This document shows, in pieces, positions 557 through 22,790 of a DNA stretch of 27,501 bases; position 1 is the first letter of the stretch, and every line of letters starts with the position of its first letter. The notes below the pieces were generated by a model that was not told where the DNA came from, did no database searches, and was given only the letters and a program-made list of their open reading frames with translations. Source of the stretch: a virus. The translations under genes were made by a program, and so were the position numbers. The DNA is taken from the IMG/VR virus record IMGVR_UViG_3300031867_000457, positions 1 through 27,501 of that record. The stretch is one strand, 5' to 3'.

Positions 557-2299
557 TTAAAATCTTGCTTCATTTTCTGTCACACTCACTTTATTTTGGG
601 TATTGGTAATATCTGTTTCGGTTACATATACCTTAGTATCTTTAATAGCACCTTCGATAGAAGCACCTTGAACATCTTGGGTATATTGGACAGGGGCGTT
701 TATTGATGCTAAAGCACCTGTTGAAGATTTTGCGCCTGAAGCCACACTTTTAGCATTGTTTTTATTTGTTTGTGCTATCTTTGCTATATTAATTGCACCT
801 GCTGTTGCAATTGCTGCTGCTTGTGCTGCGGCTATTGCAATATCCCAAACGCCCGAGTGAGTTGTAAAAGTTCCTGATATTGCTTCTACTATACCCGCAA
901 TCATACTAACAGTTGCACCCATTATTTGAAATGCTTTCTGTTCTTCAGAACCTTCTTCCATTAAATCACCTAAGTTAGAAAATATATCACCTATTGATTT
1001 TGCAGCAGTTGAATATCTTAAAATCTCATTTTGGGTTTGTTCTTTTTCAAGTGCATCCTTTAACTTTAGATATTCTTCTTCTTTAATTAACTTTGTTTTC
1101 AATGCTAAATCCAAAGCATCTATTTCTTGCTGATATTGTTCTTCAGGTGTCATGAAAGAACTACGTAACGATTCAATAGTTCCGAGTATTTTTTCTTTTA
1201 AGGCATCCGCACTACTTGTATCTGCTTCTTCCTCTTGTTCAAAACTAAAATCTACAGGAATTTTTAAGGCTTTACCTTCAAATTTCTTATCTAATTCTTC
1301 TTGCAGCGATTCAGGACGTATATATTGTACTGAACTTGCTAACAATATTGCTAATTCTTTCTGTGTCTCGATGTATTTCTTTTCTTCATCAGTTAACACT
1401 TTATATGAATCTGCACTATCAAGTATTGCTTGCTGTTGTTTTTCTGATAATCTGATGTTTTCTAACAATGCCTGTCCTTCTGCATTAAGGGCTTCCCATC
1501 TTTCCCTACTTTGATTCTCAGGCAATTTTTGTTTTTCACCAACGATTGCTAATTGTTTGTAATATCCTTCAAGTGCTGTTGCTAAATCTTCATATTGTTT
1601 TTTAGCATCTGAATTGAGATTGCTGATTTTTTGTTGTTTCTCCCATTCCTCATAAGAACCTTCAAGTTTCTTAATTTCACCTTGCAGTTCCTCAACTTTC
1701 TTCTTCTGTTCGTCAAGTTTCTTCTTGGTGTCTTCGTTGATGATTCCCCAACGCTTCATAGCATCTGAAACTTTATCCCAATTTGCTGCTAAAGCGCCAA
1801 CTGCAATAACAGCCAACCCAATACCTGTTGATGCAAGCGCGGCTTTCAAACTACTCATACCCGCGGTTGCAGATTTAATAACAATTCCCAAACGCTTAAA
1901 GGCTTTAATACCATTATCAATAGATGGTAATGCCTGTGTAATTGCCATTAGATTTTGCATTCTTTCTAATGACTTTATCACATCTTCATTTTCTATTCCA
2001 AATAAGTTCATTGTAGCCTTAGCCGCCTGTAACCCTGCTACCATACCACCTGTAGCCTTAACAAGATTGCTGGTAATCTGTCCAAAGTCCATAGCAGAAG
2101 CATTCAGTTCTTCTGTTTGTTCCTTAAGTGTGTGTTGTATATCTGCTGCCTGTTGAAGCACTTTGTTGTATTCCTCAGTACCTTGTTCAGCAGACAACAT
2201 TGCATCCTTTAATGCCTTTAACTGTTGTCTCAATTCCTTTACTGATGTTTGTGCAGGATTGGTGTCCAATTTTACTACGCGTATATTTTCTGTTGCCAT
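557..2299 (-). CDS. tape-measure-like protein (580 aa)
   Basis: Track ORF with ATG start. Long E/K/Q-rich coiled-coil-type sequence interrupted by Gly/Ala-rich hydrophobic segments (GIGLAVIAVGALAANW; MGATVSMIAGIVEAISG...AIAAAQAAAIATAGAINIAKIA). It lies in the tail module. Assignment rests on composition and position only. Confidence 0.55.
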   Translation of the reverse strand: MATENIRVVKLDTNPAQTSVKELRQQLKALKDAMLSAEQGTEEYNKVLQQAADIQHTLKEQTEELNASAMDFGQITSNLVKATGGMVAGLQAAKATMNLFGIENEDVIKSLERMQNLMAITQALPSIDNGIKAFKRLGIVIKSATAGMSSLKAALASTGIGLAVIAVGALAANWDKVSDAMKRWGIINEDTKKKLDEQKKKVEELQGEIKKLEGSYEEWEKQQKISNLNSDAKKQYEDLATALEGYYKQLAIVGEKQKLPENQSRERWEALNAEGQALLENIRLSEKQQQAILDSADSYKVLTDEEKKYIETQKELAILLASSVQYIRPESLQEELDKKFEGKALKIPVDFSFEQEEEADTSSADALKEKILGTIESLRSSFMTPEEQYQQEIDALDLALKTKLIKEEEYLKLKDALEKEQTQNEILRYSTAAKSIGDIFSNLGDLMEEGSEEQKAFQIMGATVSMIAGIVEAISGTFTTHSGVWDIAIAAAQAAAIATAGAINIAKIAQTNKNNAKSVASGAKSSTGALASINAPVQYTQDVQGASIEGAIKDTKVYVTETDITNTQNKVSVTENEARF

Positions 2300-4913: not shown

Positions 4914-6428
4914 TTAGTAAACTATATTTTGTTTATTGTTTAGTTCTAAGTTCAGCGTTAAATTAAATAGTTTCTTTTGGTTGCTGAATGTTTTTTCTGT
5001 ATAATCACTATCCGTAACCAATACTGAATATCTTTTATCTTCTTTTGTATCATATAGGAACAGAACAGGTGAGGTAAAAATACTTTCGTAATACGGATAT
5101 AAATCTTCTTTAATCCAATCTGTATTTATTTTGAACTTGCCTGTGACACCGACATTTGATAATCTTTTTCTGCCTTGATAATCCGTTAAAGTTTCTGTTT
5201 CAAATGATTCTGAATAAGTGTATTTATCATTAAATGGTTGAGATTGAAAACCACCCATTCTATCCTGCCATTGTAGGTAGTATCTTGTAGGGCAATTATC
5301 TATTTGTGCAACATAATCACCTGCAATTTCCAATTGAGTTGGTAAAGCATCAAACGGAATAGGAATTGATTGATTTGTTATACTCCATGTACCATGATGA
5401 ACTTCTTGTGGTGTGAAATTAAACGTGATGTGTTGTCCAACTTCTAAATTGGTAAAAGTAACAGGAACTGAATCATATTTCAAAACAGATGGATTTATAA
5501 ATAGTGATGATGGGCTAAATAATAGTCTTAAATTACCCGATTTATTTATAAAATCCTGTGTTACTGTAAGTCTACCAACACCTGTGGATTTTGTGAAACG
5601 TTCTCCAATAGTCACCGTACCTGATGGAACATAAACTAACATACAATAGCAACTTAACCCTTGTTCATTTTCGTTAATTACAATACCTTCTGAATTGTTA
5701 TCAATTATAAACTTCCCAACAGGTGTAACAGGCGAACCGAATGCACTTGTAACAACTCTTGGTGTGGCATTGTTATATAGATTTTCAAGTGTATATGTAA
5801 TATCAGAAGTTGGTGATACAAATGGAACAGTAAAACTACCACTTAATCCACCTCTAAACTGTGCTGTATAAGATGATAAACCTGTACCTACTTCTGATGC
5901 TAATATCATTCTGTAGTTGTCTGTTGATATATATGGGTATCTTGGCATTAAATGATATTTACCTTTACCGCCGTCACTATATCTACCTTGCAATGGAAAT
6001 GAAGCACTACCTGTTGATTCAGTCCAATCAAAAAATACATTATCCTGCATTGCTGCGATGTAATGCGGATAAGGATAAACTTTAGCAACTTGAATTTGTG
6101 CTGAAAGTGCATCTTCTTCAGGAATTTCTACATAGTAAGCATTTATAAGTTTATTTTCATTAGCAAATCTATCAAGTGTGTTGTATAGTGCATCTTCTGT
6201 TGGTGTCCACATATCGTTTCTAACAATATCAGTAATATCAATTGAAAGGGTATAATCTGTAGTTGATTTATAAGTATTACCGAAAAAGATAATATCATAG
6301 GTTCTGCTATCAGATGTATCAATTTGTGTATAACCTGATTTAAGCCTGTAAACCCTGTATTGAAGCATTCTTGCAACAGGTAATATATTACTAAATTCTG
6401 CTTTTATTCGTTCGTTTAAGTATTTCAT
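4914..6428 (-). CDS. tail/baseplate structural protein (504 aa), distal-tail-protein-like position
   Basis: Track ORF with ATG start; 4-nt ATGA overlap with the upstream gene. Beta-rich composition. No motif I can name with certainty. Confidence 0.35.
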   Translation of the reverse strand: MKYLNERIKAEFSNILPVARMLQYRVYRLKSGYTQIDTSDSRTYDIIFFGNTYKSTTDYTLSIDITDIVRNDMWTPTEDALYNTLDRFANENKLINAYYVEIPEEDALSAQIQVAKVYPYPHYIAAMQDNVFFDWTESTGSASFPLQGRYSDGGKGKYHLMPRYPYISTDNYRMILASEVGTGLSSYTAQFRGGLSGSFTVPFVSPTSDITYTLENLYNNATPRVVTSAFGSPVTPVGKFIIDNNSEGIVINENEQGLSCYCMLVYVPSGTVTIGERFTKSTGVGRLTVTQDFINKSGNLRLLFSPSSLFINPSVLKYDSVPVTFTNLEVGQHITFNFTPQEVHHGTWSITNQSIPIPFDALPTQLEIAGDYVAQIDNCPTRYYLQWQDRMGGFQSQPFNDKYTYSESFETETLTDYQGRKRLSNVGVTGKFKINTDWIKEDLYPYYESIFTSPVLFLYDTKEDKRYSVLVTDSDYTEKTFSNQKKLFNLTLNLELNNKQNIVY

Positions 6429-6871
6429 AATTCTTTGTCAATTTCTTTTTCTAATTGATTAGATATTTCATTTACTAATGCAGAAATCAAATCATCTGCA
6501 CCATCAATTGTTTGTTGTAATAGTTTTGTTGGTTTAGTTCCTTTAACACTTATACTTCTTGCAATCAAATATGCCAATTGTTTAGTTGTAGGAACTCTGC
6601 CATTCATAGCCTGTGGTACAACAGGTTTTATTCTTATCCATTGTTCTATTTTATCGGTTGGCGGAAAGTGTGGTTTAGTTCCATTTTCTAAGTATTTCCA
6701 ATAGTCTTGAAGATTGAATATAAGTTCAAAATATTTACCATCCCATTTTGTAATGTATCTTGCACTATTGGATAATTCACCGCTTGCATAATGTCCGCTA
6801 TCTTTTATTGATTGTTTGTAGCGTTCAAGAAGTTCAGAACAAATATTATTTATATCCTGTGTAATTTCCAT
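6425..6871 (-). CDS. HK97 gp10-like neck/tail-completion protein (148 aa)
   Basis: Track ORF with ATG start. Pattern ASGELSNS...YWKYLENGTKPHFPP...IEQWIRIK...GTKP resembles the sG.L..S ... Y...vE.Gt core of gp10-like head-tail joining proteins (from memory). Confidence 0.4.
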   Translation of the reverse strand: MEITQDINNICSELLERYKQSIKDSGHYASGELSNSARYITKWDGKYFELIFNLQDYWKYLENGTKPHFPPTDKIEQWIRIKPVVPQAMNGRVPTTKQLAYLIARSISVKGTKPTKLLQQTIDGADDLISALVNEISNQLEKEIDKEL

Positions 6872-6872
6872 T

Positions 6873-7169
6873 TTAATTTCTCCTTTGTAAACGTTTTATT
6901 TGTTTCTCCTGTTCCTTAGCCTTTATTACCTCATAAGATACAATATAGAACAATGTAGATATATCAAATTCCATTGCTGAAGTAAAGGTTTCATTGGTTA
7001 CTTCACAGAATTTTAAAATGAATGGGATAATACCAAATCCACTGATTCCTTCACTACCTTTATCATGTTCTTCTTGGTTTCCTTCGGCAGATTCAACTTC
7101 TTTATTCTCTTGATTGAATAAGATTGGAAAATTTGAATGAATTTTTCCAATTGTCTTTTGAAAAAAAAA
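6873..7169 (-). CDS. -1 frame extension of the 7013..7630 gene (predicted frameshift fusion of about 253 aa, lambda G/GT-like)
   Basis: Hand translation: after the T9 run the -1 frame reads QKTIGKIHSNFPILFNQENKEVESAEGNQEEHDKGSEGISGFGIIPFILKFCEVTNETFTSAMEFDISTLFYIVSYEVIKAKEQEKQIKRLQRRN with no stop for 95 codons. It ends at TAA 6873-6875, one nt before the ATG (6869-6871) of the next gene. Confidence 0.55.
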   Translation of the reverse strand, partial: FFFQKTIGKIHSNFPILFNQENKEVESAEGNQEEHDKGSEGISGFGIIPFILKFCEVTNETFTSAMEFDISTLFYIVSYEVIKAKEQEKQIKRLQRRN

Positions 7170-7630
7170 GCAGTAGAATTTACAACAGGAATCGGTAACT
7201 GTTCAATGTCATTTATTACTTCAAGCATATCATAACCATCATTATATTTGTGCCCTTCAGGAATAATAAATACTGATAACATTTTAGCCATATTTCCCGA
7301 TTTGCTGTGATTGGTAAAATCTACATATTGTGCCGTTGATATGTTACCAAGCAAACTATCAATGAAATATTTCTTTCCGTTTAATTCTATCTTCTTAGGC
7401 GGTATGCCATCAGGAATAGGTTCTTTCATGAACTCTAATTTTGCAATTTCTTTCTTGAACTCACTTATAGGTAAATTTGTAACATCATTTCCTAAAATCA
7501 GTTCAGCAATAGCAATAGTTCTTTCAGTTTCATCTTCAATCTTTATCAATTCCTGTAATCTTTCAAACTGATAAAGTGTTACGTTATACCAATTATATTT
7601 CTTTATATTTTTCATAACATTTTCATTCAT
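7013..7630 (-). CDS. putative tail assembly chaperone-like protein, zero-frame product (205 aa)
   Basis: Track ORF. The ATG at 7628-7630 lies inside motif copy c1, and a second in-frame ATG sits 5 codons later (MKNIKKYN). Contains an in-frame GCU UUU UUU UUC run at 7160-7171. Chaperone call rests on the frameshift architecture, not on sequence similarity. Confidence 0.45.
   Translation of the reverse strand: MNENVMKNIKKYNWYNVTLYQFERLQELIKIEDETERTIAIAELILGNDVTNLPISEFKKEIAKLEFMKEPIPDGIPPKKIELNGKKYFIDSLLGNISTAQYVDFTNHSKSGNMAKMLSVFIIPEGHKYNDGYDMLEVINDIEQLPIPVVNSTAFFFKRQLEKFIQIFQSYSIKRIKKLNLPKETKKNMIKVVKESVDLVLSHSF
7123..7169 (-). promoter_or_regulatory. putative -1 programmed ribosomal frameshift signal
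   Basis: Plus strand has A9 at 7161-7169, which is U9 in the mRNA. In-frame heptamers are U UUU UUU (7169-7163) and U UUU UUC (7166-7160). An 8-nt spacer (aaaagaca) follows. Then comes a perfect 9-bp stem AUUGGAAAA (7151-7143) / UUUUCCAAU (7131-7123) with an 11-nt loop. Confidence 0.55.
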
Positions 7631-7662: not shown

Positions 7663-8898
7663 TTATCTTATTGCATAAGTGCCTTTATTTATACAATCCA
7701 ATGCAAGTAACATAGCAATAATACAGTCATCATGATAGCCATTGGCGGCATTGTATGTGCGTTTGCCATTTGCATTAGTTTTCATTTCGTACATATCCAA
7801 TTGTACCTTTAATGTTGGATTATCCAATATAGTTACCTGTTTGTTTTGCATATAAACCTGAAACTGATTTATAATTCTTTCTTTACTTTCATTGGTTGTA
7901 GTAAATTTAAGCAACATAACAGGTAAACCATTTGCCTTAATCGCTTTATCCAATAAGCCATAGAACACCGCGCCAATGCTGTTTGTTTCTACCTGCACCT
8001 TTAACGGTTTGTAACGCTTGATAAGTTCAATAATATAATCAATTGTTTGTGTTTCATCCTTATCGCTAAAATGATACAAACCTATCATTTGTCTTTCACC
8101 GTTAAAGATTGCAATGGCTGTTTCATCTTGATGGTTTCCTGTACCCCAATCAATCCCGAAGTAACAGTTACCATTGGTATTGAAGTTATTGTTTATAATA
8201 CCTGAATAATTTCCAAATACGCCACCTTCATTATCAAGAAACTCGCCTAAAAATTCTGTTTTGAATTTAGATGGCGGTATCTGTTTACGATATTCTTCTA
8301 ACTTTTCTTTGGGTAATAATGCAGAAGTGTCAAATTCACTCCAATTGTAGGATAAAATTGAATTTCCGTTTTCCAATCCCATTGTGTAGTATTTATAAAA
8401 GAATCCTGTCTTATGGTTTGGTGTGCTACATATAATTACAGGGGCTTGAGAAACATTAACCCATGCAAGAATTTCGTAAAATATGTTATCCGATATATAA
8501 GCCCCTTCATCTATACACAAAATACCTGTAACTGTGTAACCTCTTAAACCGTCACCTTGTTCAGCCGATTTAAATAATATTTCGCTGCCATTACACAACT
8601 TGATATACAACTGCAAATCATTGTGTTTGTAATATATCTTTGTAGGCTGTATAACCGTTTTACAGGCATTGAACACCTTTCTTGCTTGTTCCAATGTAGG
8701 TGAAACAAAGATTGAAGTTGTTTTTGAATTGTTTATGGCTGTTTGTAAAATGATTGATTGAAGTAAAATGGATTTTCCAACCTGCCGCTTTGATTTTATA
8801 ACATGTATATAACCGCGCCAATTCGCCTTAACATTATTTATTACCTGTGTCTGCCAAGGATAGAATTTAAGATTAGATTTTACTTTAACAACATCCAT
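7663..8898 (-). CDS. terL: terminase large subunit (411 aa)
   Basis: Walker A-like KSKRQVGKS, Walker B ILCIDEGAY, CSTP coupling-type motif, then an RNaseH-like nuclease half (GIDWGTG ... VETNS ... GYHDDCIIA). Follows a small HTH/acidic protein. Confidence 0.9.
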   Translation of the reverse strand: MDVVKVKSNLKFYPWQTQVINNVKANWRGYIHVIKSKRQVGKSILLQSIILQTAINNSKTTSIFVSPTLEQARKVFNACKTVIQPTKIYYKHNDLQLYIKLCNGSEILFKSAEQGDGLRGYTVTGILCIDEGAYISDNIFYEILAWVNVSQAPVIICSTPNHKTGFFYKYYTMGLENGNSILSYNWSEFDTSALLPKEKLEEYRKQIPPSKFKTEFLGEFLDNEGGVFGNYSGIINNNFNTNGNCYFGIDWGTGNHQDETAIAIFNGERQMIGLYHFSDKDETQTIDYIIELIKRYKPLKVQVETNSIGAVFYGLLDKAIKANGLPVMLLKFTTTNESKERIINQFQVYMQNKQVTILDNPTLKVQLDMYEMKTNANGKRTYNAANGYHDDCIIAMLLALDCINKGTYAIR

Positions 8899-9564: not shown

Positions 9565-9905
9565 TTGTCTATAAATTTAGAATAAATTGTTTGGATTATT
9601 TTTGTTATAATATCTTCTACCAATAATATAGTATTTTTAATCAAACCACTAAAAGTTGCTAATAAGCACACAACCACTATATATTTTAGAGTGAAAGCAC
9701 CTGTAAAGAACAGATAGATTAAGCCACACCACCAAATGGTACACAGACTACAATCAAATGGTTTAAGCCTATAATCACAACCTGACATCCTACCCTTGGT
9801 TAATAACCACTTTAAACTGCTTTTCAACGTATCAATTGCCCCTGATATGTCAATCACAAAAACACATATCAAAGCAATCATCAATAGGTTTATTATTGTT
9901 TCCAT
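9561..9905 (-). CDS. small polytopic membrane protein with Cys cluster (114 aa)
   Basis: Three hydrophobic segments (LLMIALICVFVIDISGAI; TIWWCGLIYLFFTGAF; IVVVCLLATFSGLI) and C-x9-C-x2-C (GCDYRLKPFDCSLC). Overlaps the 3' end of the sigma region-4-like ORF by 56 nt. Confidence 0.55.
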   Translation of the reverse strand: METIINLLMIALICVFVIDISGAIDTLKSSLKWLLTKGRMSGCDYRLKPFDCSLCTIWWCGLIYLFFTGAFTLKYIVVVCLLATFSGLIKNTILLVEDIITKIIQTIYSKFIDK

Positions 9906-10323
9906 ATTTTTCAGTATATATTTTTCTTATTTTCTTTCTTGCATTATAAACAAGCACCTTTAACGTTGCAACATTTTTAGGGGCTGTACCTTCAAATGAT
10001 TTTATACATTCGGAATAACTTTTTGAACATTCTACTGCGATTAAAAGGTTACGTTCAGCAGGGGTAATTTCATTGTTAATAATGTCCCATAACCTGATAA
10101 ATTCAACTGATTTGTTATAATCAAAATAAGCATCCATTTCAAAAACCTCATGATTATCATCCTTAAACAATCGTATTTCTTCCTTTTTATCAAGATAAAT
10201 ATTGTTCATTGTTTCAATATATTCCTGTACTTCGGCTTTAGCAACTTCATATTTTGTTTTCTTCATCGTAGGTTGCCCAAAAGATGTCATCTTTTGTTTG
10301 GAAGGTTTCGTTGTATTTTCCAT
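9850..10323 (-). CDS. sigma-70/ECF region-4-like protein (157 aa; may start at the internal Met at 10266)
   Basis: ITPAERNLLIAVECSKSYSECIKSFEGTAPKNVATLKVLVYNARKKIRKIY matches the region 4.2 pattern Lp..eR.v..l.....s..EIa..lg.s..tVk..l.rAr.kLr. No region-2-like part is present in this ORF. Confidence 0.5.
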   Translation of the reverse strand: MENTTKPSKQKMTSFGQPTMKKTKYEVAKAEVQEYIETMNNIYLDKKEEIRLFKDDNHEVFEMDAYFDYNKSVEFIRLWDIINNEITPAERNLLIAVECSKSYSECIKSFEGTAPKNVATLKVLVYNARKKIRKIYTEKYGNNNKPIDDCFDMCFCD

Positions 10324-10636
10324 ATTTTTTATAGATTTTACTTGTTTTACTAATCAATTGTTGGTGAATTATACCTGTAACATATCCACTAATTGCAAAT
10401 CTTCCTTGAGAATATAATTCATTCCATCTTTTCTGAGGAACTTCACAAATCATAAGGTATATTTCCTGAATCTTATCCTGTACTTCCTCATTTTCCATTG
10501 TTTTCTTAAGTAAATAGGTAGTGTACCATTCTACAATGTGAATATCATAAATCCATTGTATAATATCATCCTTCTTATCTGATTTAAGCGGTAAGTCAGC
10601 AGAAAGAACCTTAAATTCATAGTAGTTATTTTTCAT
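10247..10636 (-). CDS. sigma-70/ECF region-2-like protein (129 aa)
   Basis: EEVQDKIQEIYLMICE ... FAISGYVTGIIHQQLISKTSKIYKKY resembles region 2.2-2.4 (aeDlvQe.fl.l ... f..WL..Ia.N..id..Rk..r). The ORF stops before any region-4-like part and overlaps the next ORF by 77 nt in a different frame. Confidence 0.4.
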   Translation of the reverse strand: MKNNYYEFKVLSADLPLKSDKKDDIIQWIYDIHIVEWYTTYLLKKTMENEEVQDKIQEIYLMICEVPQKRWNELYSQGRFAISGYVTGIIHQQLISKTSKIYKKYGKYNETFQTKDDIFWATYDEENKI

Positions 10637-10767
10637 ATTCCTAATATTTTTTTATAAATTTCACTTCTATCATCTGTTACTTTATAAAGGTTGTATTTAG
10701 CACCATCTGCTGTTAGTTTAGCAATATTGGCTGTAATAGTATCTCTTAATTGCTTATCCCTAACCAT
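10633..10767 (-). CDS. small hypothetical protein (44 aa)
   Basis: Not in track. ATG at 10765-10767: MVRDKQLRDTITANIAKLTADGAKYNLYKVTDDRSEIYKKILGI. Its TGA overlaps the next gene's ATG as ATGA, suggesting translational coupling. Confidence 0.3.
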   Translation of the reverse strand: MVRDKQLRDTITANIAKLTADGAKYNLYKVTDDRSEIYKKILGI

Positions 10768-10840
10768 CTTTGTAATAGCTTTAGCCCATCCTTTGCTTCC
10801 CTTTTGATTGTTTACTAATATGCAATTTTCTTCATATATT

Positions 10841-11524
10841 CTATTTCTTAAATATTGTTATGTTTCCGTTTTTAATTTGTACTGCGTAACGGCTAATTGT
10901 GTTGATTAGCGTATCGCGTGGTATGAGAATGTTGCAGGCGTGTTCTTGATAATTCATTTGATGTGTAATTTTAAATCCGTTGTAATATTCGGAAGGCTTA
11001 TTCATCATCCTTAAATTGTTTGCTACAGCCTTTAATGATGTAGAAGATAAGTTCTTTTTCCTTAAATAATCGTATAAATCCTGCTTATAAACAAGTACGA
11101 TAGTAGCATCTGTAATGTTTGTGTAGTCGTGTAATTTACCATCAGTAGAGTTAATCCCATCAATCCAAACTTCTACAAGCCATTCAGAAGCGGAATGAAA
11201 ATCAAGTAACCAACCGTCATATAATTGTCCTGCTACATTGATACTATTTATTTCATGGGCAAATGTCTGTAAGTTTCGCCCTGCCCAATGTGTAGCAGCC
11301 TTTTCATCTATCGTAAATTTATATCCGTTTGGATGAGTTGCAGAAATATCTAATCCTGCAATCTGTAACGCCTTATCTGTGTTACGCGTTGTAGAAGTTG
11401 TAAAGGTAGGGTAAAAGTAAGCATCAAGATAATCGCCTACTATCCTTTCATCTTGTACATCTTTACTTCTTCTGTTTCTGTAGTCAGCCTGTGAATCGGC
11501 TGTTGGTAAATAGTTGTAATTCAT
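10841..11524 (-). CDS. hypothetical protein with PD-(D/E)xK-like nuclease motif (227 aa)
   Basis: Track ORF with ATG in ACTATG context. GLDISATHPNGYKFTIDEKAATHW gives a D-x12-D-E-K spacing typical of restriction-endonuclease-fold nucleases. Weak, motif-level only. Confidence 0.3.
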   Translation of the reverse strand: MNYNYLPTADSQADYRNRRSKDVQDERIVGDYLDAYFYPTFTTSTTRNTDKALQIAGLDISATHPNGYKFTIDEKAATHWAGRNLQTFAHEINSINVAGQLYDGWLLDFHSASEWLVEVWIDGINSTDGKLHDYTNITDATIVLVYKQDLYDYLRKKNLSSTSLKAVANNLRMMNKPSEYYNGFKITHQMNYQEHACNILIPRDTLINTISRYAVQIKNGNITIFKK

Positions 11525-13218: not shown

Positions 13219-13239
13219 AGTTTGCAAATGATTTTAAGA

Positions 13240-13389
13240 TTAAATTATTACGTCTGTGGCATCATGTGTAGTTACCACGAACTCTATTTCTCCATTCTTG
13301 ACAGCCTTATTAAATGCTGCATGCCCCATTGCTTTCTTCGCCTGCTGTCTATCGGGGTATGTCTGTTTAGTAATTTTGTTTTGTATCAT
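13240..13389 (-). CDS. small early-region protein (49 aa)
   Basis: Not in track. MIQNKITKQTYPDRQQAKKAMGHAAFNKAVKNGEIEFVVTTHDATDVII. The ATG is preceded by TTTGACAACT (TTTG-N6-ATG). Confidence 0.35.
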   Translation of the reverse strand: MIQNKITKQTYPDRQQAKKAMGHAAFNKAVKNGEIEFVVTTHDATDVII

Positions 13390-13408
13390 AGTTGTCAAAA
13401 TTTAAATC

Positions 13409-13546
13409 TTATCCGAAAAATATGTAATCGTATAATCCTTTATCATGCGTGTACATATCATATAAGTCTGTATCAGTCATATTGGTTATTACTTTATAAC
13501 CTGTCTTTGTCACCGACTGATAGGTGATAGTTTTGATGTTTCCCAT
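13409..13546 (-). CDS. small early-region protein (45 aa)
   Basis: Not in track. MGNIKTITYQSVTKTGYKVITNMTDTDLYDMYTHDKGLYDYIFFG. The ATG is preceded by CATTTGCAAACT (TTTG-N6-ATG). Confidence 0.35.
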   Translation of the reverse strand: MGNIKTITYQSVTKTGYKVITNMTDTDLYDMYTHDKGLYDYIFFG

Positions 13547-13865
13547 AGTTTGCAAATGTTTCCTTTCTTTTTATATTTATCTAAAAATTTTTTGTGATTT
13601 TTTGCATTTTTGTAAAACATTGTAAATCAATGGGAAGTGGTTATCTTTGATTTTCTTCTAATTAAATATAATTTAGGTATCAGGAAAGTCAATAGATATT
13701 TTATCCTTTTCTATATATAAATACTTTTTAACTTTCAAAAAGTGATAGAAAAAGTGATTTTTTTTTAATTTTTTTTCTGATATACAAAGGTATCAGGAAA
13801 ACGGCATATAAAAAAGTTCTACACCATTTTCCTGAAATAATAGAATAAGCCTGATGTGATTCTTC

Positions 13866-13952
13866 TTATTTACCTTTGCATGGGCGTGTAATACTCAAAA
13901 TTGCTTTAAGTTTACCGTCTCTGTAATACTTGATGTTAGTTGTTTTCTTCAT
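13866..13952 (-). CDS. mini-ORF (28 aa)
   Basis: Not in track. MKKTTNIKYYRDGKLKAILSITRPCKGK. Lies 17 nt downstream of the 40-aa ORF on the same strand. Confidence 0.2.
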   Translation of the reverse strand: MKKTTNIKYYRDGKLKAILSITRPCKGK

Positions 13953-13969
13953 AATATAAACCCTTTCTT

Positions 13970-14092
13970 TTAATCGGCAGAAGAATCAGGTTTATGTTTT
14001 CGTTCGTGCCTGTAACTAAATCTTATCACCTTATAGGAAAAATACATTACAGCACCGAAGAATAAAACTGTTAAGATTTCGGTTATAGTCAT
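13970..14092 (-). CDS. small single-pass membrane peptide (40 aa)
   Basis: Not in track. MTITEILTVLFFGAVMYFSYKVIRFSYRHERKHKPDSSAD. ACTATG start context. A TAACTTTG -7 box lies 27 nt upstream. Confidence 0.35.
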   Translation of the reverse strand: MTITEILTVLFFGAVMYFSYKVIRFSYRHERKHKPDSSAD

Positions 14093-14118
14093 AGTTTCTT
14101 TATTTTAATTATCTAATA

Positions 14119-14126
14119 CAAAGTTA
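14119..14126 (-). promoter_or_regulatory. Bacteroidota-type -7 promoter box TAACTTTG
   Basis: Plus strand caaagtta gives TAACTTTG on the minus strand, matching TAnnTTTG. The -33 position has TTTT rather than TTTG. Confidence 0.35.
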
Positions 14127-14378
14127 GTGAAAAATATCCATATAAAAAAGGTAAATACGATTTTTCTTGACTTAATGATTAAACAGCACTTTAACCTGTT
14201 TCCTGATAGGTTGATGTACACTTATTCCTAAATATCAAATTAAACTTAATCTGATTGTAATAATATCAATATATCTTCCTTATGGTTAATACAAAGATAA
14301 GTAAAAGAATTGATATTTACAATAGGTTTAAGATATTTGTAATAGGTTATTAATTATTCTCTAATCTCTAATCCATAT

Positions 14379-14418
14379 TACATACATATATTCATAGAAG
14401 AAGAATTTTCAAACACTT
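14379..14418 (-). promoter_or_regulatory. copy c2 of the 40-bp bipartite motif
   Basis: Minus strand reads AAGTGTTTGA-AAATTCTTCTTCTATG-AATATATGTATGTA. No ORF follows directly. 37/40 identical to the reverse complement of c5. Confidence 0.5.
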
Positions 14419-14515
14419 CTTTAAATCAACCCTAACCCTGCCATAATAACCATCAATCCAAACATGAATCCAAATACTACTACACCTATCACAATAGATA
14501 CCTTAAATAGATACT

Positions 14516-14671
14516 TTAACATAGCCCTAAATCCTTTCTTACTTTAGCCATAGTTTGATGATAAGTCTGAAATAAATCCAAATCAAACCCCCACCTAATC
14601 TGTGTTGCTTCAAAATACTCTGTAGGATTCATTTTTAGATAATTCTTTCCCCATAATCTAAAACTTTTCAT
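14516..14671 (-). CDS. hypothetical small protein (51 aa from ATG; the track ORF uses an upstream TTG at 14740)
   Basis: MKSFRLWGKNYLKMNPTEYFEATQIRWGFDLDLFQTYHQTMAKVRKDLGLC. ACTATG context at 14669-14671. No family recognised and coding status uncertain. Confidence 0.25.
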   Translation of the reverse strand: MKSFRLWGKNYLKMNPTEYFEATQIRWGFDLDLFQTYHQTMAKVRKDLGLC

Positions 14672-14788
14672 AGTAGTAAGACGGTTAACCACCCACCGAA
14701 AGGTTTTAAGTTTAGCAATAAAATCCCGATAAAGAAGCAAACCATCCTTCTTTATTCTTTCACCTATAAGAATTATGTTGATGAAAAT

Positions 14789-14824
14789 GGGAAAAAAGTG
14801 GGGGAAAATAGGGGGTTTTGGGGG
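14789..14824 (+). repeat. G-tract cluster G3-N8-G5-N6-G5-N4-G5 (potential G-quadruplex on plus strand, C-tracts on minus strand)
   Basis: GGGaaaaaagtGGGGGaaaataGGGGGttttGGGGG. Further GGG runs at 14841-14843 and 14854-14856. Conspicuous in a very AT-rich non-coding stretch. Confidence 0.6.
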
Positions 14825-14974
14825 TAAAATGGCTGTTCAAGGGTAGTTTTGAAGGGAAATGAGTAAATTTGGTTGTAAAGTTGGTAATTAGGTTGTAGAA
14901 TTGGTATTAGGTTATTATAGGTATTATCTCTATATTTCTTTCTATTCTCTCTTATATTATTATTCAAGTAATTC

Positions 14975-15017
14975 TACATACATATATTATTAGAAAAATA
15001 AAATTATTCAAACACCT
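14975..15017 (-). promoter_or_regulatory. copy c3 of the bipartite motif (19-nt spacer variant)
   Basis: Minus strand reads AGGTGTTTGA-ATAATTTTATTTTTCTAAT-AATATATGTATGTA. Its sense direction points into the C-rich, non-coding-looking stretch 14773-14967. Confidence 0.45.
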
Positions 15018-15100
15018 ATAAAAAATATCAATAATTTTTGTACTTTTTTGAACTATCAAACTATTTATATATAAATAACAAAATCAAATAATTATAGGAT

Positions 15101-15352
15101 ATGAAAACAATTCAACTTTATTTCAATAATGATTCTACTGTATCTGTAAAAGAATGCCTTAGATTATCAAGATATGACATGATAACAGTAGCAGAAGAAA
15201 CAGGTGAACATTACTACATTGAAGGTAATAATGAAGGATTCCAAAAAGGTTATTCATTTGGGGTTATTTATACGCTGTTCTTTATGCTTGTAGGATGGTT
15301 TGGTATCAGGATATTAGACAGGCTGAGAAACCCCAAGCAAATGAATGATTAA
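15101..15352 (+). CDS. small C-terminally anchored membrane protein (83 aa); the only plus-strand gene
   Basis: Track ORF with ATG start. Hydrophobic helix VIYTLFFMLVGWFGIRIL near the C-terminus. Followed by a hairpin plus T-run. Confidence 0.55.
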   Translation: MKTIQLYFNNDSTVSVKECLRLSRYDMITVAEETGEHYYIEGNNEGFQKGYSFGVIYTLFFMLVGWFGIRILDRLRNPKQMND

Positions 15353-15375
15353 GTGCTTATAAACCAAACAAAAAA

Positions 15376-15401
15376 GGATTAGGTGTTAAGCCTAATCTTT
15401 T
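15376..15401 (+). terminator. rho-independent-type terminator of the 83-aa gene (A-tract upstream, so potentially bidirectional)
   Basis: aaaaaGGATTAGG-tgttaag-CCTAATCTttt: a 7-bp stem plus one G-U pair, a 7-nt loop and a T4 tail. An outer TAAGTGC/GCACTTA pairing (15350-15356 / 15403-15409) encloses it. Confidence 0.55.
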
Positions 15402-15425
15402 GGCACTTATCCACAAAAAGCCCCC
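15390..15425. repeat. left terminal inverted repeat of the IS
   Basis: gcctaatcttttggcacttatccacaaaaagccccc aligns with the reverse complement of 16737-16772, ggctaaacttttggcagttaaccatgaaaacacccc. 28/36 identical, core CTTTTGGCA.TTA.CCA. The outer limit is uncertain by about 12 nt. Confidence 0.6.
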
Positions 15426-15469
15426 TGCACACTACCAACGATAATGTGCACTATAGTTCATAAAGGGGC
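15415..15469 (-). terminator. terminator of the transposase gene
   Basis: Minus strand reads GCCCC-tttatgaactatag-TGCACA-ttatcgttggtag-TGTGCA-g-GGGGC-TTTTT. That is nested 5-bp GC and 6-bp stems followed by T5. Confidence 0.5.
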
Positions 15470-15485
15470 GACTGTCAATTAGCCC

Positions 15486-16598
15486 TTATTCAAAATCTGA
15501 TAATGTGTAAACTTTCCCTTTGTTTCTTATTTCGGATAAACCAAATATTTCCATTCCCTTCTTTAAGGCTTCCATGTGTGCCTTTTCTTTGGCTTGTTTT
15601 TCTTGCAGTTTCTTCTTGCTTATAAACATTGCCTGAAAGTTATAGTTCCTGATGTCGTTATAGGTGTAATGTATGCCTATAGAGTTACTGATTATTTGGT
15701 TAAACTTATCTTCTGTTGATAGGCTTTTTGTGTTGAATCTAAAAGCATATTCATTAAGATATAACTGATGATATTTGCAATGGGTTATCTTACCGTTAAA
15801 TCCACGCTTAAACCAACTAAACCTGTTTTCTATTGCATTACTTGTTAACCCTTCCTTTGTTCGGTATTGGTTGTTGTGGTGATTATTGGTATATAATTTA
15901 CTGCCTGTAGCCTGTTCCCAATCTATGTATAAAGCACTTTCATCAGATACAACAGAACTACCTTTCTTTGCGTGTTTTTTGTATAGTGTTCTGATATATT
16001 CTTTCTTAATCGGATTGGGTGTAGCATACAATACAACCTTATCCCCATTAGTCATGCCAAATACAGGCTGTTTAAGGGCTTTATTTAAGGCAAATATATT
16101 TTCCTTCGTATATTTATAATCATCTTGTTTAATGAAATGATTTTTACGTAATAAATCCAATTTGCGGCTATAATGGAAGTTAGACAAACAACCACCAACA
16201 TACATTTCATCTTGGGCTATAATACCTTCCAAAATAACCTTATCCTGTGGCATGGCAAACCGTAACTTAGTCATTAACAGCCATGCAGATTTTTGGTTAA
16301 TGCCAAGTTTTTTTGACATTACTACAGAAGATATAAAGTTATCTACACTCATTTCATAGATTGCCTGCATCCAAACCGATACAGGTAACTTAGAACCGTG
16401 CATTAAGGTGTTTGTTTTGTCTGTGAAACGCCTTTTGCAACTATTACACTTGTACCTGTAACCGTCATATTCTGCAATGTGAAGGCTACCACAATAAGGG
16501 CAAACAACAATACCATAACCCCACCTTACACGATGGAAAATTACCTCTGCATTCCTGATAACTTTTGCCGTTGATAATGTGTGTTTTTTCGCTGTCAT
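15486..16598 (-). CDS. IS1595-family (ISXO2-like) DDE transposase, 370 aa from the first ATG
   Basis: N-terminal zinc ribbon CPYCGS...YKCNSCKRRF, then an HTH. Catalytic signatures are AQDEMYVGG, VVSDESALY, SNAIENRFSWFKR and YLNEYAFRFN. The track start at 16625 is TTG and lies inside the -7 box; the ATG at 16596-16598 (MTAKKH) is the likely start. Confidence 0.9.
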   Translation of the reverse strand: MTAKKHTLSTAKVIRNAEVIFHRVRWGYGIVVCPYCGSLHIAEYDGYRYKCNSCKRRFTDKTNTLMHGSKLPVSVWMQAIYEMSVDNFISSVVMSKKLGINQKSAWLLMTKLRFAMPQDKVILEGIIAQDEMYVGGCLSNFHYSRKLDLLRKNHFIKQDDYKYTKENIFALNKALKQPVFGMTNGDKVVLYATPNPIKKEYIRTLYKKHAKKGSSVVSDESALYIDWEQATGSKLYTNNHHNNQYRTKEGLTSNAIENRFSWFKRGFNGKITHCKYHQLYLNEYAFRFNTKSLSTEDKFNQIISNSIGIHYTYNDIRNYNFQAMFISKKKLQEKQAKEKAHMEALKKGMEIFGLSEIRNKGKVYTLSDFE

Positions 16599-16622
16599 AA
16601 TGTCAATTTCTAAAAAACAATG

Positions 16623-16654
16623 CAAAGGTACAGAAAATAAATCATTTATCCAAA
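16623..16654 (-). promoter_or_regulatory. canonical Bacteroidota sigma-A-type promoter of the transposase
   Basis: Minus strand reads TTTG (16654-16651), 20 nt, then TACCTTTG (16630-16623) followed by CA. An exact match to TTTG-N19-21-TAnnTTTG. Confidence 0.7.
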
Positions 16655-19232: not shown

Positions 19233-22200
19233 TTAGAACAACGCCCCTATATCAACACCTACTGCATCAGCAATTTTTTTCAATATATCTTGCAATGTCA
19301 TAATATCAGGATTATCATACTTAGTTTCAGTTCCGTTATAATAACCCAAACCATATACATAGATGTCGCCATTTTGCATTATTTCAAAGGCATTCTTTCT
19401 TTCACCATCTTCACCAATACCTACTGAAACAACAGTATTGCCTTCGTGATGTACTTCCGAAACATCTACTGAGTGTGAAACATTATATCTACCTTGTGCG
19501 TGTTCGTTTATATTATTGGTTTCAGTTGCAAAACCTTCGGCGTGTGAATGTGTTGCACTTGCTTGAGTTATAGTTAAACACCCTTCTGCGTGTGAATAAG
19601 CACCTTCAGCAGAACATCCATCACCATTAGTTATAGAACCACAACCAGAATCATATCCATAACCAAGTGCAGAAATTGTATTGTTAGTGATGTCGATATT
19701 GTCGCCTGTTCCAAGTGCATCTTGTTTTCCTCTAATAGTTTCCTGCAAAGTCTGCAAACCACTTGGTGCACCTGTTTCACCTTTAATATGTACTCCATCA
19801 TAGTTACCAATACCAATCAAATAAACTTGTCCTGATTGCATTACTTCAACAGCGTTCTTTCTTGCATCATCAGCCGTACCGATACCTATAGAATGAACTG
19901 TATTACCCAAATTACCGTCGAAACTATCGGTTATGTAGTGCGAAACATTATAAGAACCTTGTGCGTGTTCAGCATTACACAATGTTTTGGTAAATCTACC
20001 TTCGGCGTGTGAGTTAAGTCCATTAGTGATTGTTTCACTTCCTTCAGCGTGAGATTGGTTACCATTTGCGATTGTTCTACTACCTTCAACGTGTGTGTTA
20101 TTACCATTTGCGATTGTGCTACCACCTTCCGCGTGAGAATTAGTACCTTTTGCAAACGTTAATTTGCCTTCTGAGTGAGAGTTAACACCATAAGCAATAG
20201 TGGCATTACCTTCAGCGTGTGCATAATCACCTGCATCTGTTTTACTATCAGCAGTTTTTGGATTAGTTGTTTCAGAAGCGTAATTACCACCTGTTTCTGA
20301 ACCATCACCCTCGGCGTGTGACGCATATCCATTAGCAACTGCTTGTCGTCCTTCTGTATGCGAATTTGTACCCTTTGCTTCTGTACTACCACCTTCAGCG
20401 TGTGAATTTATACCATCTGCTTTTGTACCACTACCTTCTGCGTGTGCACGTGCGCCCGATGCGACTGAATTTATACCTTCAGCGTGTGAACAATTTCCTT
20501 TTGCAAATGTTTGTTGTCCCTCTGAATGTGATGCAATACCATAAGCAATTGTAGCACTACCTTCTGCGTGTGAATAGTCACCCGTTGTTGTTGTTCTGCT
20601 ATTAGGTGTTTTAGGATTGGTTGTATTACTTGAATAATTACCACCTGTTTCGCAAGTGTCACCCTCAGCGTGTGAAGCATATCCATTTACTGTTGTATTT
20701 TTACCTTCAGCGTGTCCATTAGCACCAGCTGCTGCTACAGTTGTTACACCACCCTCTGCGTGAGAATGTGCACCAATTGCACGAGTACCATTACCTTCTG
20801 TATGTGAATAATTACCTTTAGCAAAAGTTGTTTTACCTTCTGAATGTGCAGCAACACCATACGCAATGGTAGCATTACCTTCAGCGTGTGCATACGCACC
20901 TGCATCTGTACTACCACCTGCTGTTTTGGGGTTAGATAATACAGAACCATAATTACCACCTGTTTCTGTATTATAGCCTTCAGTGTGTGATGCATATGCT
21001 GTACTATTTGCTTTAGTTGAACGTCCTTCTGCGTGGGAAACATTTCCACTTGCTGTTGATTCTGCACCCTCAACGTGGGATGCAATTCCTTCTGCATTTG
21101 TGTTACTACCTTCTGCGTGTGAGTTATTACCACTTGCAATTGTTGATAATCCTTCAGAGTGGGCAGTTGAACCTTGTGCTGTTGTACCATTACCTTCTGC
21201 GTGTGAAGCCCGTCCTGTAGCACTAGTATTAATACCTTCAGCGTGCGCCATAATACCTGTAGCAGTTGATTTATAACGAATAGTACCGTTTTCATCAATA
21301 TCCCTATCACCTTCAGCAAAAGCACCGTTTGATGTATTATATCTATAACCAATTGCCTTTATAGCATTGTTGGTAATGTCTATGTTATCACCTGCAGAAT
21401 AAGTTGTATCATTTGCAGATATAGTAGTACCATTGATTGTGATGTTATTACCTGCTGTAAGTGTGGCTTGTTTACCACCCAATAATGTATCAACTTCTGT
21501 TTTGTTGTAATAGTTTGACAAATCAACCTCAGTAGAACCAATCTTTTCCCAAGCATTGTTGATGTACATATATTCGTCATAAACATCAGGATTTGCACCA
21601 CCTGCTTTAGGAACGAAATATATAGTATTCACTTCACCTGTTGCAGGAAGTGTTTGAACAACTTCTACACTAAATCCTGCATCAATCACAGCGGATATAG
21701 TATTGTTTGTGATAACTATATTTTGTCCTGCTGTCAACACATCTTGTTTACCACTGATAACCTGTTGAAGTGTTTTTACAGTTTCATATCCTTGTTCAGA
21801 TTTGATATGCACACCATCATAATTACCAACACCTTTGATATAAACATCTGCGTTCTGCATTACCTCAACAGCATTGGATTGTGTATCTGTGTATCGTCCA
21901 TTACCGATAGAATGAAGTGTGTGATTACCGTCACCTTGCCAAGTAGTTGCAGCATTAGATGCTGTTTTGTGTGATATGTTTGCAGCACCTTGTGCGTGTT
22001 CTGCGTAGTTTTGTGTTTGAGTGAACAAACCTTCTGTATGTGAGTCATCACCAACAGCACATAAATCATCAGCAGAAGCACCTTCGCCCTCAGCGTGTGC
22101 CCTTAAACCTCTTGCTTTTGTATATCCGCCTTCAGAGTGTGATTGTCTTCCAATTGCTTTAGTTTGGTAGCCTTCTGCGTGTGAATAGTTTGCTTTTGCT

Positions 22201-22790
22201 TCTGTTTCACCACCCTCGGCGTGTGATGCTGTTTCAGATGCTTTTGTCAAGTTGCCTTCAGCGTGTGTAACAAATCCCGAAGCCTGTGTTAAGTTGCCTT
22301 CAGCGTGGCAACCATAATCACCGCTTGCTGTTGTGCTATATCCTTCTGCGTGAGAACCTAATCCTGTAGCAGTATTTTCAACAACCTGTCCACCATCAGC
22401 AGCATCTTGTTTGTATTTCTCAGCAAAACCGCCATTTGTATCACCGTTGAACTTGTAACCTTTAGCAGAAATAGTATCGTTAGCAATATCGATGTTTTCG
22501 CCTGCTGTCAACGCGCCTTGTTTGTTTGATAGTTCGGAGTTTATTTTGTTTGAACTCCAAGTTTTATCGGTTCTTACAGAAGTATCATCTATAATGTGTC
22601 CTAATTCCTCAGCCAACGGTAATATTTCTAAAAGAATAGAATAAACATCATCAAAATCTTCCTCACTACCACCAAGTTCCCTGTATATATTCATTGAAAG
22701 CGAATAAATACTTTCAAAAGGTATAGGTTCTGTACCTAACCTTGCACTAATTTCCTGTGCTATTTCGTAATTTGAATTAAAATCTGCCAT
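19233..22790 (-). CDS. tail fibre / host-adhesion protein built from 14-residue H-x-E-G repeats (1185 aa)
   Basis: About 35-40 copies of (S/A)H(A/S/T)EG spaced 14 residues apart, for example SHAEGGETEAKANY-SHAEGYQTKAIGRQ-SHSEGGYTKARGLR-AHAEG. Three modules each end in EHAQG..N.SH...HSIG.G...NA.E.MQ.G..Y..G.G.Y.G. GKQ..LTAG.NI.I.N.TISA linkers join them. A fibre-collar motif is present: LPATGEVNTIYFVP...YDEYMYINNAWEKIGS. Confidence 0.75.
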   Translation of the reverse strand: MADFNSNYEIAQEISARLGTEPIPFESIYSLSMNIYRELGGSEEDFDDVYSILLEILPLAEELGHIIDDTSVRTDKTWSSNKINSELSNKQGALTAGENIDIANDTISAKGYKFNGDTNGGFAEKYKQDAADGGQVVENTATGLGSHAEGYSTTASGDYGCHAEGNLTQASGFVTHAEGNLTKASETASHAEGGETEAKANYSHAEGYQTKAIGRQSHSEGGYTKARGLRAHAEGEGASADDLCAVGDDSHTEGLFTQTQNYAEHAQGAANISHKTASNAATTWQGDGNHTLHSIGNGRYTDTQSNAVEVMQNADVYIKGVGNYDGVHIKSEQGYETVKTLQQVISGKQDVLTAGQNIVITNNTISAVIDAGFSVEVVQTLPATGEVNTIYFVPKAGGANPDVYDEYMYINNAWEKIGSTEVDLSNYYNKTEVDTLLGGKQATLTAGNNITINGTTISANDTTYSAGDNIDITNNAIKAIGYRYNTSNGAFAEGDRDIDENGTIRYKSTATGIMAHAEGINTSATGRASHAEGNGTTAQGSTAHSEGLSTIASGNNSHAEGSNTNAEGIASHVEGAESTASGNVSHAEGRSTKANSTAYASHTEGYNTETGGNYGSVLSNPKTAGGSTDAGAYAHAEGNATIAYGVAAHSEGKTTFAKGNYSHTEGNGTRAIGAHSHAEGGVTTVAAAGANGHAEGKNTTVNGYASHAEGDTCETGGNYSSNTTNPKTPNSRTTTTGDYSHAEGSATIAYGIASHSEGQQTFAKGNCSHAEGINSVASGARAHAEGSGTKADGINSHAEGGSTEAKGTNSHTEGRQAVANGYASHAEGDGSETGGNYASETTNPKTADSKTDAGDYAHAEGNATIAYGVNSHSEGKLTFAKGTNSHAEGGSTIANGNNTHVEGSRTIANGNQSHAEGSETITNGLNSHAEGRFTKTLCNAEHAQGSYNVSHYITDSFDGNLGNTVHSIGIGTADDARKNAVEVMQSGQVYLIGIGNYDGVHIKGETGAPSGLQTLQETIRGKQDALGTGDNIDITNNTISALGYGYDSGCGSITNGDGCSAEGAYSHAEGCLTITQASATHSHAEGFATETNNINEHAQGRYNVSHSVDVSEVHHEGNTVVSVGIGEDGERKNAFEIMQNGDIYVYGLGYYNGTETKYDNPDIMTLQDILKKIADAVGVDIGALF
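19971..20999 (-). repeat. tandem triplication (about 315-360 nt units) inside the fibre gene
   Basis: Three units (about aa 598-702, 703-820, 821-940) each read YASH.EG....ETGGNY.S...NPKT.......G.Y.HAEG.ATIAYG...HSEG..TFAKG..SH.EG. At DNA level they share near-identical blocks such as ccacctgtttc...caccctc.gcgtgtga.gcatatccatt. Confidence 0.7.

Follow-up and report, generated by a model that had tools for sequence, protein, structure and literature searches.

The subject of this analysis is a 27,501-nt stretch of viral DNA, positions 1 to 27,501 of the IMG/VR record IMGVR_UViG_3300031867_000457 (hereafter the window, always at its full length), and within it a minus-strand gene, denoted X, that follows the gene for the large terminase subunit (terL). 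A preliminary description of the same DNA had proposed that a run of nine T residues (T9) within X acts, together with a hairpin located downstream of it, as a textbook signal for a programmed -1 frameshift, and that an open reading frame (ORF) in the -1 frame, denoted X', fills the only gap in the tail operon. The elements of this arrangement are as follows.

7013..7630, minus strand: X, the zero-frame ORF, encoding the short product of 205 aa, with an acidic N-domain of ~157 aa and a basic 48-aa helical-hairpin tail
7161..7169, minus strand: the slip site, T9 within GCT TTT TTT TTC, with two in-phase heptamers, U UUU UUU and U UUU UUC
6873..7169, minus strand: X', the -1 ORF, consisting of FFF, 95 codons and TAA, and yielding the 252-aa long product
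7123..7151, minus strand: an A/U-rich 9-bp hairpin with an 11-nt loop, starting 8 nt after T TTT TTC

Inspection of the sequence bears out all that the proposal states about the letters themselves, the hairpin included: GCU UUU UUU UUC, with T9 at 7169..7161, lies inside the 205-aa gene; the 95-codon -1 ORF passes through the zero-frame stop codon and the gap; and its own stop codon abuts the next ATG. The local context of the run is ...AAT TCT ACT GCT TTT TTT TTC AAA AGA...; the -1 frame is closed by stops just upstream of T9, opens at the run (QKTIGK...LQRRN) and extends beyond the zero-frame stop (TAA, 7015..7013) across an otherwise unassigned gap (7012..6872) to a TAA at 6875..6873, which is followed by a single A and the ATG (6871) of the next gene (TAAAATG), with AGGAG located 9 nt upstream of this ATG. 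By our own arithmetic, a 98-codon open alternative frame has a probability of ~5e-4, given ~7.5% stops per codon at 33% GC. Across the whole 27.5-kb, 33% GC window, two T9/A9 runs were observed, compared with 6.2 expected, and the slip-site T9 is the sole such run within a gene. The only other T9 is found on the plus strand at 13758-13776, where it is followed 2 nt later by T8. An intrinsic terminator was considered as an alternative role for the T-run and rejected: there is no GC hairpin upstream and no terminator was called at the site. The decisive case against chance is provided by conservation in relatives.

Conservation of the run and of both reading frames

A protein search with the reconstructed fusion retrieved 311 relatives, nearly all of 195-210 aa and covering only the N-terminal 60% of the fusion, and an exhaustive profile search yielded 1,609 clusters (50% identity) at E <= 1e-3, the best 150 of which are nearly all 187-236 aa long. 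For a census of run lengths, the DNA of 83 related loci was collected from IMG/VR, GTDB genomes and JGI metagenomes and scored at the homologous position: T9 was recorded 56 times, T7 12 times, T6 eight times, T10 four times, T5 three times and T8 twice. Loci with a run at this position span ~27-66% GC, and GCT TTT TTT TTC is retained even in 62% GC genomes. The third codon of the run may be TTC, TTG or TTA and is therefore free to specify either Phe or Leu, which argues that selection acts on the nucleotides. Across the family, T9 occurs either in codon phase 2 or in codon phase 0. An in-phase T TTT TTY heptamer is kept in every T6/T7 lineage, where either the first or the second of the two T9 heptamers is retained depending on the lineage, as well as in the T8 locus of standard arrangement; the T5 group alone has only a tetramer in place of the heptamer.

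In every locus examined, the -1 frame becomes open at the run, and the extension that it encodes is recognisable as homologous. This extension comprises a helix with (N/G)FPxLF at its end, a low-complexity acidic linker and a C-domain of ~55 aa. The C-domain carries the motif FGIIPFxLKFCEVTN...LFYIVSYE in close relatives and WGWIANVD..SE..R.SWD.VW....EFLN..Y in distant ones. The preliminary description had suggested checking whether homologues keep a slippery run and an overlapping -1 ORF, and every relative examined does. This conservation supports its central claim, namely, that a programmed -1 shift at the T-run gives rise to a second, C-terminally extended product.

Both C-terminal tails behave as coding sequence. 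In the part encoded by the -1 frame only, substitution rates at codon positions 1, 2 and 3 are.30,.20 and.56, respectively; in the 48-codon overlap the rates are flat (.41,.33 and.37), a pattern expected of dual coding. The -1 extension aligns as protein across all lineages. The zero-frame tail, for which lengths of 43-58 codons were tallied in close relatives, is likewise conserved to its end (alignment A1), and over the latter half of the overlap its amino-acid identity reaches.40, compared with.28 for the -1 frame.

The structure models are consistent with two folded products. AlphaFold2 (AF2) predicts the 205-aa short form with a predicted local distance difference test score (pLDDT) of 86, its zero-frame tail being modelled as a helical hairpin at pLDDT 80-93, and the 252-aa fusion with a pLDDT of 86 and a predicted template modelling score (pTM) of 0.77. 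In the model of the long form, the N-domain (residues 1-166) leads into an acidic linker modelled as disordered (176-198), after which three helices make up the C-domain (202-251); the frame junction is predicted to fall within a long helix, which in the long product is continued (..IHSNFPILF) before the linker and the C-domain (FGIIPFILKFCEVTN...LFYIVSYE...). The calculated pI values are 5.0 for the N-domain, 10.2 for the short tail and 5.1 for the long form.

Collectively, these results indicate that programmed recoding with two products is almost certainly real. X/X' is a large protein family with a known recoding logic, without prior annotation and at a non-canonical position.

One sub-clade of the relatives (L005-L009, L043-L048, L052 and L019) has TAG codons, in frame and at positions that align with Gln, in the zero frame as well as in the -1 frame (for example, L006:3001-3567). 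The genuine stops in this sub-clade are TAA or TGA, and treating TAG as sense approximately doubles the ORF coverage of the plus strand. The sub-clade reads TAG as sense, probably as Gln, and it retains the T9 recoding site and the arrangement.

Possible ribosomal and transcriptional slippage at the T-run

In the mechanism that we propose, standard decoding of X would give the 205-aa protein, with its acidic N-domain and basic helical hairpin, and a minority of decoding events would move one base back on the U-run (GCU UUU UUU UUC) into the -1 frame to give the 252-aa protein. The latter would share the N-domain, carry the acidic disordered linker and the conserved three-helix C-domain, and end 1 nt before the start of the tail-completion gene. 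The shift may proceed by tandem -1 slippage of tRNA-Phe on U UUU UUU or U UUU UUC without a dedicated downstream stimulator, and slippage of RNA polymerase on T9, with one U added, probably contributes in the T9 members. This account as a whole, in which -1-shift recoding occurs at the U-run with the ribosome at least contributing, is in our view the best explanation, with a probability of roughly 0.6. We lean towards the ribosome as the main agent of the shift; the weight left beyond the ribosome and the polymerase goes to a mixture of both or to a host-dependent agent. The retention of in-phase heptamers in the T6/T7 lineages, with either the first or the second of them varying, fits a ribosomal requirement. 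Only the ribosome is sensitive to codon phase, and the polymerase would not slip efficiently on a run as short as T6. The preliminary description overlooked that exactly T9 is also a classic length for slippage by bacterial RNA polymerase, which would give the same protein: the product of either process reads ...AFFFQKT....

The label of a textbook signal holds only in part. The in-phase heptamer, the spacer and the 9-bp stem are all present in the window; the stem arms, ATTGGAAAA (7151..7143) and TTTTCCAAT (7131..7123), pair exactly, and a folding energy of -9.5 kcal/mol was calculated for the 60 nt that follow the run (z = -3.3 relative to shuffled sequences). The hairpin itself, however, is not conserved. 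In an ungapped alignment of 23 relatives, 58.9% of cells are compatible with its pairing, compared with 59.2% in shuffles, and there is no covariation, which rules it out as a conserved stimulator. In most homologues, the 60 nt downstream are no more stably folded than shuffles, z lying in the range from -1 to +2. The 3′ arm of the hairpin coincides with the conserved dual-coding motif AATTTTCCA, which encodes NFP in the -1 frame and IFQ in the zero frame. Given that the hairpin is not conserved, the -1 slippage would be unstimulated.

Informative variation in run length is provided by rare relatives of 252-263 aa in which the long form is a single ORF (among them P0001, P0008, P0256 and P0287; one such contig has a coverage of only 1.5x). 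All of the continuous homologues that were checked owe their continuity to T10, except for P0195. The T10 alleles are located at L018:2474, L091:1450, L092:1450, L019:549, L088:1981 and L090:1974, and in L054; all of them preserve the short tail in the +1 frame. One T10 allele is common to contigs from three samples (L018, L091 and L092) and occurs on two 3′ backgrounds: the 5′ parts of L018 and L091 are identical, including T10, and their 3′ parts differ, which indicates a circulating allele rather than an assembly slip. In addition, L072 has T10 in the standard arrangement, and L063 carries a T8 allele that disrupts both products. In P0195 (L089:620-1318), the long form is encoded as a single ORF without a T-run (..LNAFSQVLQ..), and no short-tail frame is open.

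Several of these observations weigh against the account as a whole. No conserved stimulatory structure was found. The run, at 9 nt, is exactly as long as those on which slippage by bacterial RNA polymerases is typical (PMC1088944). T10 alleles with the long form in frame and the short tail intact occur in at least five lineages, and their persistence is easier to explain if a change in run length is tolerated by expression. Finally, the retention of only the long form in P0195 implies that the short form is dispensable or has been lost in that lineage.

A competing mechanism is programmed transcriptional slippage, whereby the host polymerase would produce mRNAs with U8-U11 from the T9 template, the U9 species encoding the 205-aa protein and the U10 species the 252-aa protein, with no ribosomal shift involved. 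The run is exactly 9 nt long in two thirds of the loci, in two codon phases and including genomes of 62-66% GC; downstream structure is neither conserved nor needed under this scheme; and the persisting T10 alleles (L018/L091/L092, L019, L054, L088 and L090, as well as L072) fit tolerance of template length. Runs of 9A/9T are prone to slippage in bacteria, selection against it becoming visible at length 9 in many of them, and are exploited by insertion sequence (IS) elements (PMC1088944). UUUUUUU and AAAAAAA are avoided in all frames of E. coli genes, in part on account of such slippage (PMC4066793). Yet in at least 20 loci, spread over many lineages, the run is no longer than T6 or T7, which in most bacteria would not allow efficient slippage by the polymerase, and these loci have nevertheless kept the -1 ORF; moreover, these shorter runs always form in-phase X XXY YYZ heptamers, which are relevant to the ribosome only. 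Slippage on 9-mers is suppressed in some AT-rich bacteria (PMC1088944), and the phage DNA is 33% GC. The T10 alleles could simply be viable mutants that make only the long form, similar to the fused P0195. On balance, we consider transcriptional slippage as the sole mechanism unlikely, albeit a contender to be taken seriously.

Far less probable is phase variation, in which replication slippage would toggle T9 and T10 within the phage population so that each genome makes one form without recoding. Shifted alleles are indeed fairly common among the contigs (T10 in at least five lineages, T8 in L063), but the vast majority of independent assemblies, like both isolates, have T9 as the consensus, purifying selection maintains both tails even where the run is T6/T7 and hence stable, and paired action would need both products in one infected cell. 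The alternative raised in the preliminary description, that a homopolymer error in sequencing or assembly has split a single ORF of about 253 aa (~252 aa here) and that the 205-aa ORF is an artefact, can be dismissed as scarcely credible: homopolymers are error-prone and there are a few continuous homologues, one of them on the contig of 1.5x coverage, but T9 recurs in 56 of the 83 loci, across studies and assemblers, in dozens of assemblies made independently and in the genomes of two isolates, and a conserved zero-frame tail modelled at pLDDT 80-93 is not expected of an artefact.

Gene neighbourhood and possible function of the two products

The neighbours of X that bear on its function are the following.

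7663..8898, minus strand: terL, the upstream neighbour (phrog_2, 1e-33; Pfam Terminase_6N and Terminase_6C)
6425..6871, minus strand: tail-completion/Neck1 gene (HK97 gp10-like), the downstream neighbour (phrog_5, 7e-4)
557..2299, minus strand: gene for a 580-aa coiled-coil protein, the only tape-measure-like gene (weak PHROG tape-measure hits, 1e-5)

The position of X directly after terL, as originally described, is thereby confirmed, and terL also adjoins X upstream in L020, L026-L028, L088, L090 and the Nonlabens phage P12024S. The tail-completion gene is recognised with better scores in L020 and L028 (phrog_5, 4e-8 and 9e-7) and is homologous to gp42 of P12024S (1e-12). Three genes, including those for 504-aa and 861-aa proteins, separate X from the tape-measure-like gene, and the same order is observed in P12024S and in distant loci. 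The synteny of the family is constant: terL, X, the phrog_5 tail-completion/Neck1 protein, a protein of 340-560 aa and a protein of 760-1,080 aa. The window contig has no terminal repeat, so that a wrap-around gene order is an assumption.

Two cultured phages of Nonlabens (Persicivirga), P12024S (JQ823122) and P12024L (JQ823123), share the terL-X arrangement, T9 and the -1 ORF. In P12024S, T9 is located at 23578 (locus L087, 23136-23830) and the -1 ORF comprises ~80 codons. A Foldseek comparison of X with the P12024S protein I6R9M9, which by its length (175 aa) is gp38, gives a probability of 1.00. In both phages, the annotation lists genes 38 and 39 as two hypothetical proteins and makes no mention of recoding; they in fact belong to a single recoded gene, one being its zero-frame product and the other a portion of its -1 extension. 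The Nonlabens gene is a true, if distant, homologue: it lies directly after terL, and the synteny shared with the window phage is genome-wide, extending over the terL, X, tail-completion, 861-aa, tape-measure-like, 296-aa, 181-aa, portal and DUF6712 proteins. The 580-aa protein is weakly similar to the C-terminus of P12024S gp49 (E 0.013), which we judged by eye to be tape-measure-like from its coiled-coil-rich sequence. Unlike in the window, T9 of P12024S is in the other codon phase (CTT TTT TTT TAT), and the products are 175 and 231 aa long rather than 205 and 252 aa.

In Flavobacterium phage 6H (L094, KC959568), a 191-aa structural relative (10927..9900, minus strand) contains TGT TTT TTC at a distance of six codons from its stop. 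The unannotated interval before the next gene is occupied by a 105-codon -1 ORF, but a TAG in the -1 frame directly follows the heptamer.

Database searches provided little information on what X does. Searches of Pfam and PHROGs with X and X' gave nothing at E <= 0.01 and only scattered noise at relaxed thresholds, and neither the window protein nor 30 relatives matched a tail assembly chaperone (TAC) entry in these two databases. There was no match to X in the PDB by sequence or by profile, none with E < 1 in a Foldseek search of the PDB, and none among terminase small subunits or connector proteins. BFVD yields numerous confident matches; apart from P12024S I6R9M9 and, more weakly, Flavobacterium phage 6H, these are uncharacterised proteins from uncultured phages. 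Blastn and tblastn searches of INPHARED found no match for the window sequences or for a distant family member, and further protein searches returned no named homologue.

By analogy with the fixed-ratio chaperone pair gpG/gpGT of lambda, we tentatively suggest that X and its extended form X-X' may be TAC-like; the shared N-domain would hold one partner and the C-domain added by the -1 frame would recruit another during tail or neck assembly. The constant synteny, the fact that no second overlapping -1 gene pair is seen in the ORF list of the window, and two weak fold matches make such a G/GT-like pair the best functional guess. One of the fold matches in BFVD is to an annotated tail assembly chaperone (probability 0.60), and the other is to H6WBL9 of RcapNL (probability 0.82, E 0.27), which by its length (190 aa) is gp16, encoded between the major tail protein and the tail/tape-measure genes. 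No clear -1 ORF was found at RcapNL gp16, so that the support from this match is only positional. In P12024S, gp47/gp48 beside the tape-measure-like gene were considered as an alternative G/GT pair and rejected, given that there is no slippery heptamer and gp48 has its own start. As in TAC genes, two overlapping ORFs share an N-terminus via a conserved -1 shift. Two findings speak against a TAC assignment: X does not lie between the major tail (tube) and tape-measure genes, and neither sequence nor solved fold (Pfam, PHROG, PDB) places it in a TAC family.

Alternatively, the recoding may be real and the protein not a TAC at all, being instead a packaging or neck accessory factor with isoforms that act at head-tail joining; a terminase partner, a head-completion chaperone or a connector chaperone could be envisaged. 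X always lies between terL and the Neck1/tail-completion gene and was never seen beside the tape-measure-like gene, it matches no TAC family or structure, and the helical-hairpin tail of the short form is basic (pI 10.2). Nonetheless, terminase small subunits and connectors are equally without a match, the weak fold matches involve an annotated TAC and a protein that occupies the TAC slot, and G/GT is the only well-established conserved -1 two-product pair in the structural modules of tailed phages (PMC5009743). We consider this neck or packaging role beside terL doubtful as it stands and yet nearly as likely as a G/GT-like chaperone.

Elsewhere in the window, a 379-aa ORF (15486-16625, minus strand) contains IS1595/ISXO2-type DDE transposase and zinc-ribbon domains (Pfam 2.6e-16 and 1.4e-6) and is flanked by a gene-poor stretch (~13228-15485). 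Within the latter, positions 13228-14515, between replication-like and IS-like genes, contain only short alternative-frame ORFs and may serve in regulation or as an origin; scanning the window for Rfam families and tRNAs returned nothing. A 1,185-aa protein (19233-22790, minus strand), encoded downstream of portal-proximal genes, matches phrog_25468 in 10 repeated stretches (4.6e-70) and is probably a repeat-rich fibre or receptor-binding protein.

Comparison with known recoding systems and implications

The conserved -1 frameshift in TAC genes, exemplified by lambda G/GT, was reportedly described by Levin in 1993 and by Xu, Hendrix and Duda in 2004. As in lambda, the products of X share their N-terminus, a -1 shift late in the upstream ORF gives the longer one, the -1 ORF runs up to where the next gene begins, and the arrangement is conserved while the sequence diverges. 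X likewise belongs to a structural gene block, and the window phage is distantly related to a siphovirus (Inhavirus, a genus formerly classified in Siphoviridae). There is no strong conserved stimulator in either case: lambda G/GT shifts without one, and the frameshift of TAC genes in tailed phages has been reviewed (PMC5009743). Unlike G/GT, which occupies the slot between tail tube and tape measure and shifts on G GGA AAG, X is located between terL and the tail-completion gene, has a T9 homopolymer as its slip site with 48 zero-frame codons following it, and shows neither homology to the TAC families of Pfam and PHROGs nor a fold match in the PDB.

A second point of comparison is provided by genes that rely on slippage at A9/T9. 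Thermus thermophilus dnaX uses A9 and Shigella mxiE uses T9. Together with Shigella spa13 and many IS elements, these genes undergo transcriptional slippage (PMC1088944; PMC5009743). X shares with them an exact 9-nt homopolymer in a coding region that is conserved at the nucleotide level, a fusion attainable by one added nucleotide with no need for RNA structure, and run-length variants among relatives. It differs in that many relatives have only T6/T7, always as in-phase ribosomal heptamers. We know of no phage morphogenesis gene that has been shown to use transcriptional slippage.

Gene 10A/10B of T7 and the frameshifted extensions that major capsid or tail proteins carry in Listeria and SPP1-type phages similarly represent genes of the structural module with a minor, C-terminally extended frameshift isoform. 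These are, however, capsid or tube proteins with known folds, whereas X is modelled as mostly helical, with no capsid or tube fold apparent in the prediction, and what its extension adds is an acidic linker followed by a small helical domain.

The recoding itself will be unsurprising to specialists. Throughout the family, gene callers split or truncate X, leaving ~1,600 clusters of ~200-aa proteins and orphan fragments of 57-113 aa, and recognition of the recoding site repairs the annotation for a lineage of rumen, gut and marine phages. The family forms a natural series (T5-T10; 27-66% GC; standard and TAG-recoded codes) that would allow ribosomal and polymerase slippage to be told apart, and its size, the presence of T9 in GC-rich genomes, the T10 alleles and the cultured P12024S make mechanism and function directly testable. 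There is a small chance that the isoforms are set mainly by polymerase slippage on T9/T10 and serve, unlike the classical tube/tape-measure chaperone, as a terminase-adjacent chaperone pair in neck/tail joining, in which case this would be the first conserved recoding by transcriptional slippage in a morphogenesis gene of tailed phages. If X is a TAC, the logic of G/GT would be separable from its canonical position; if it is not, the family would represent a second class of phage morphogenesis genes with fixed-ratio recoding.

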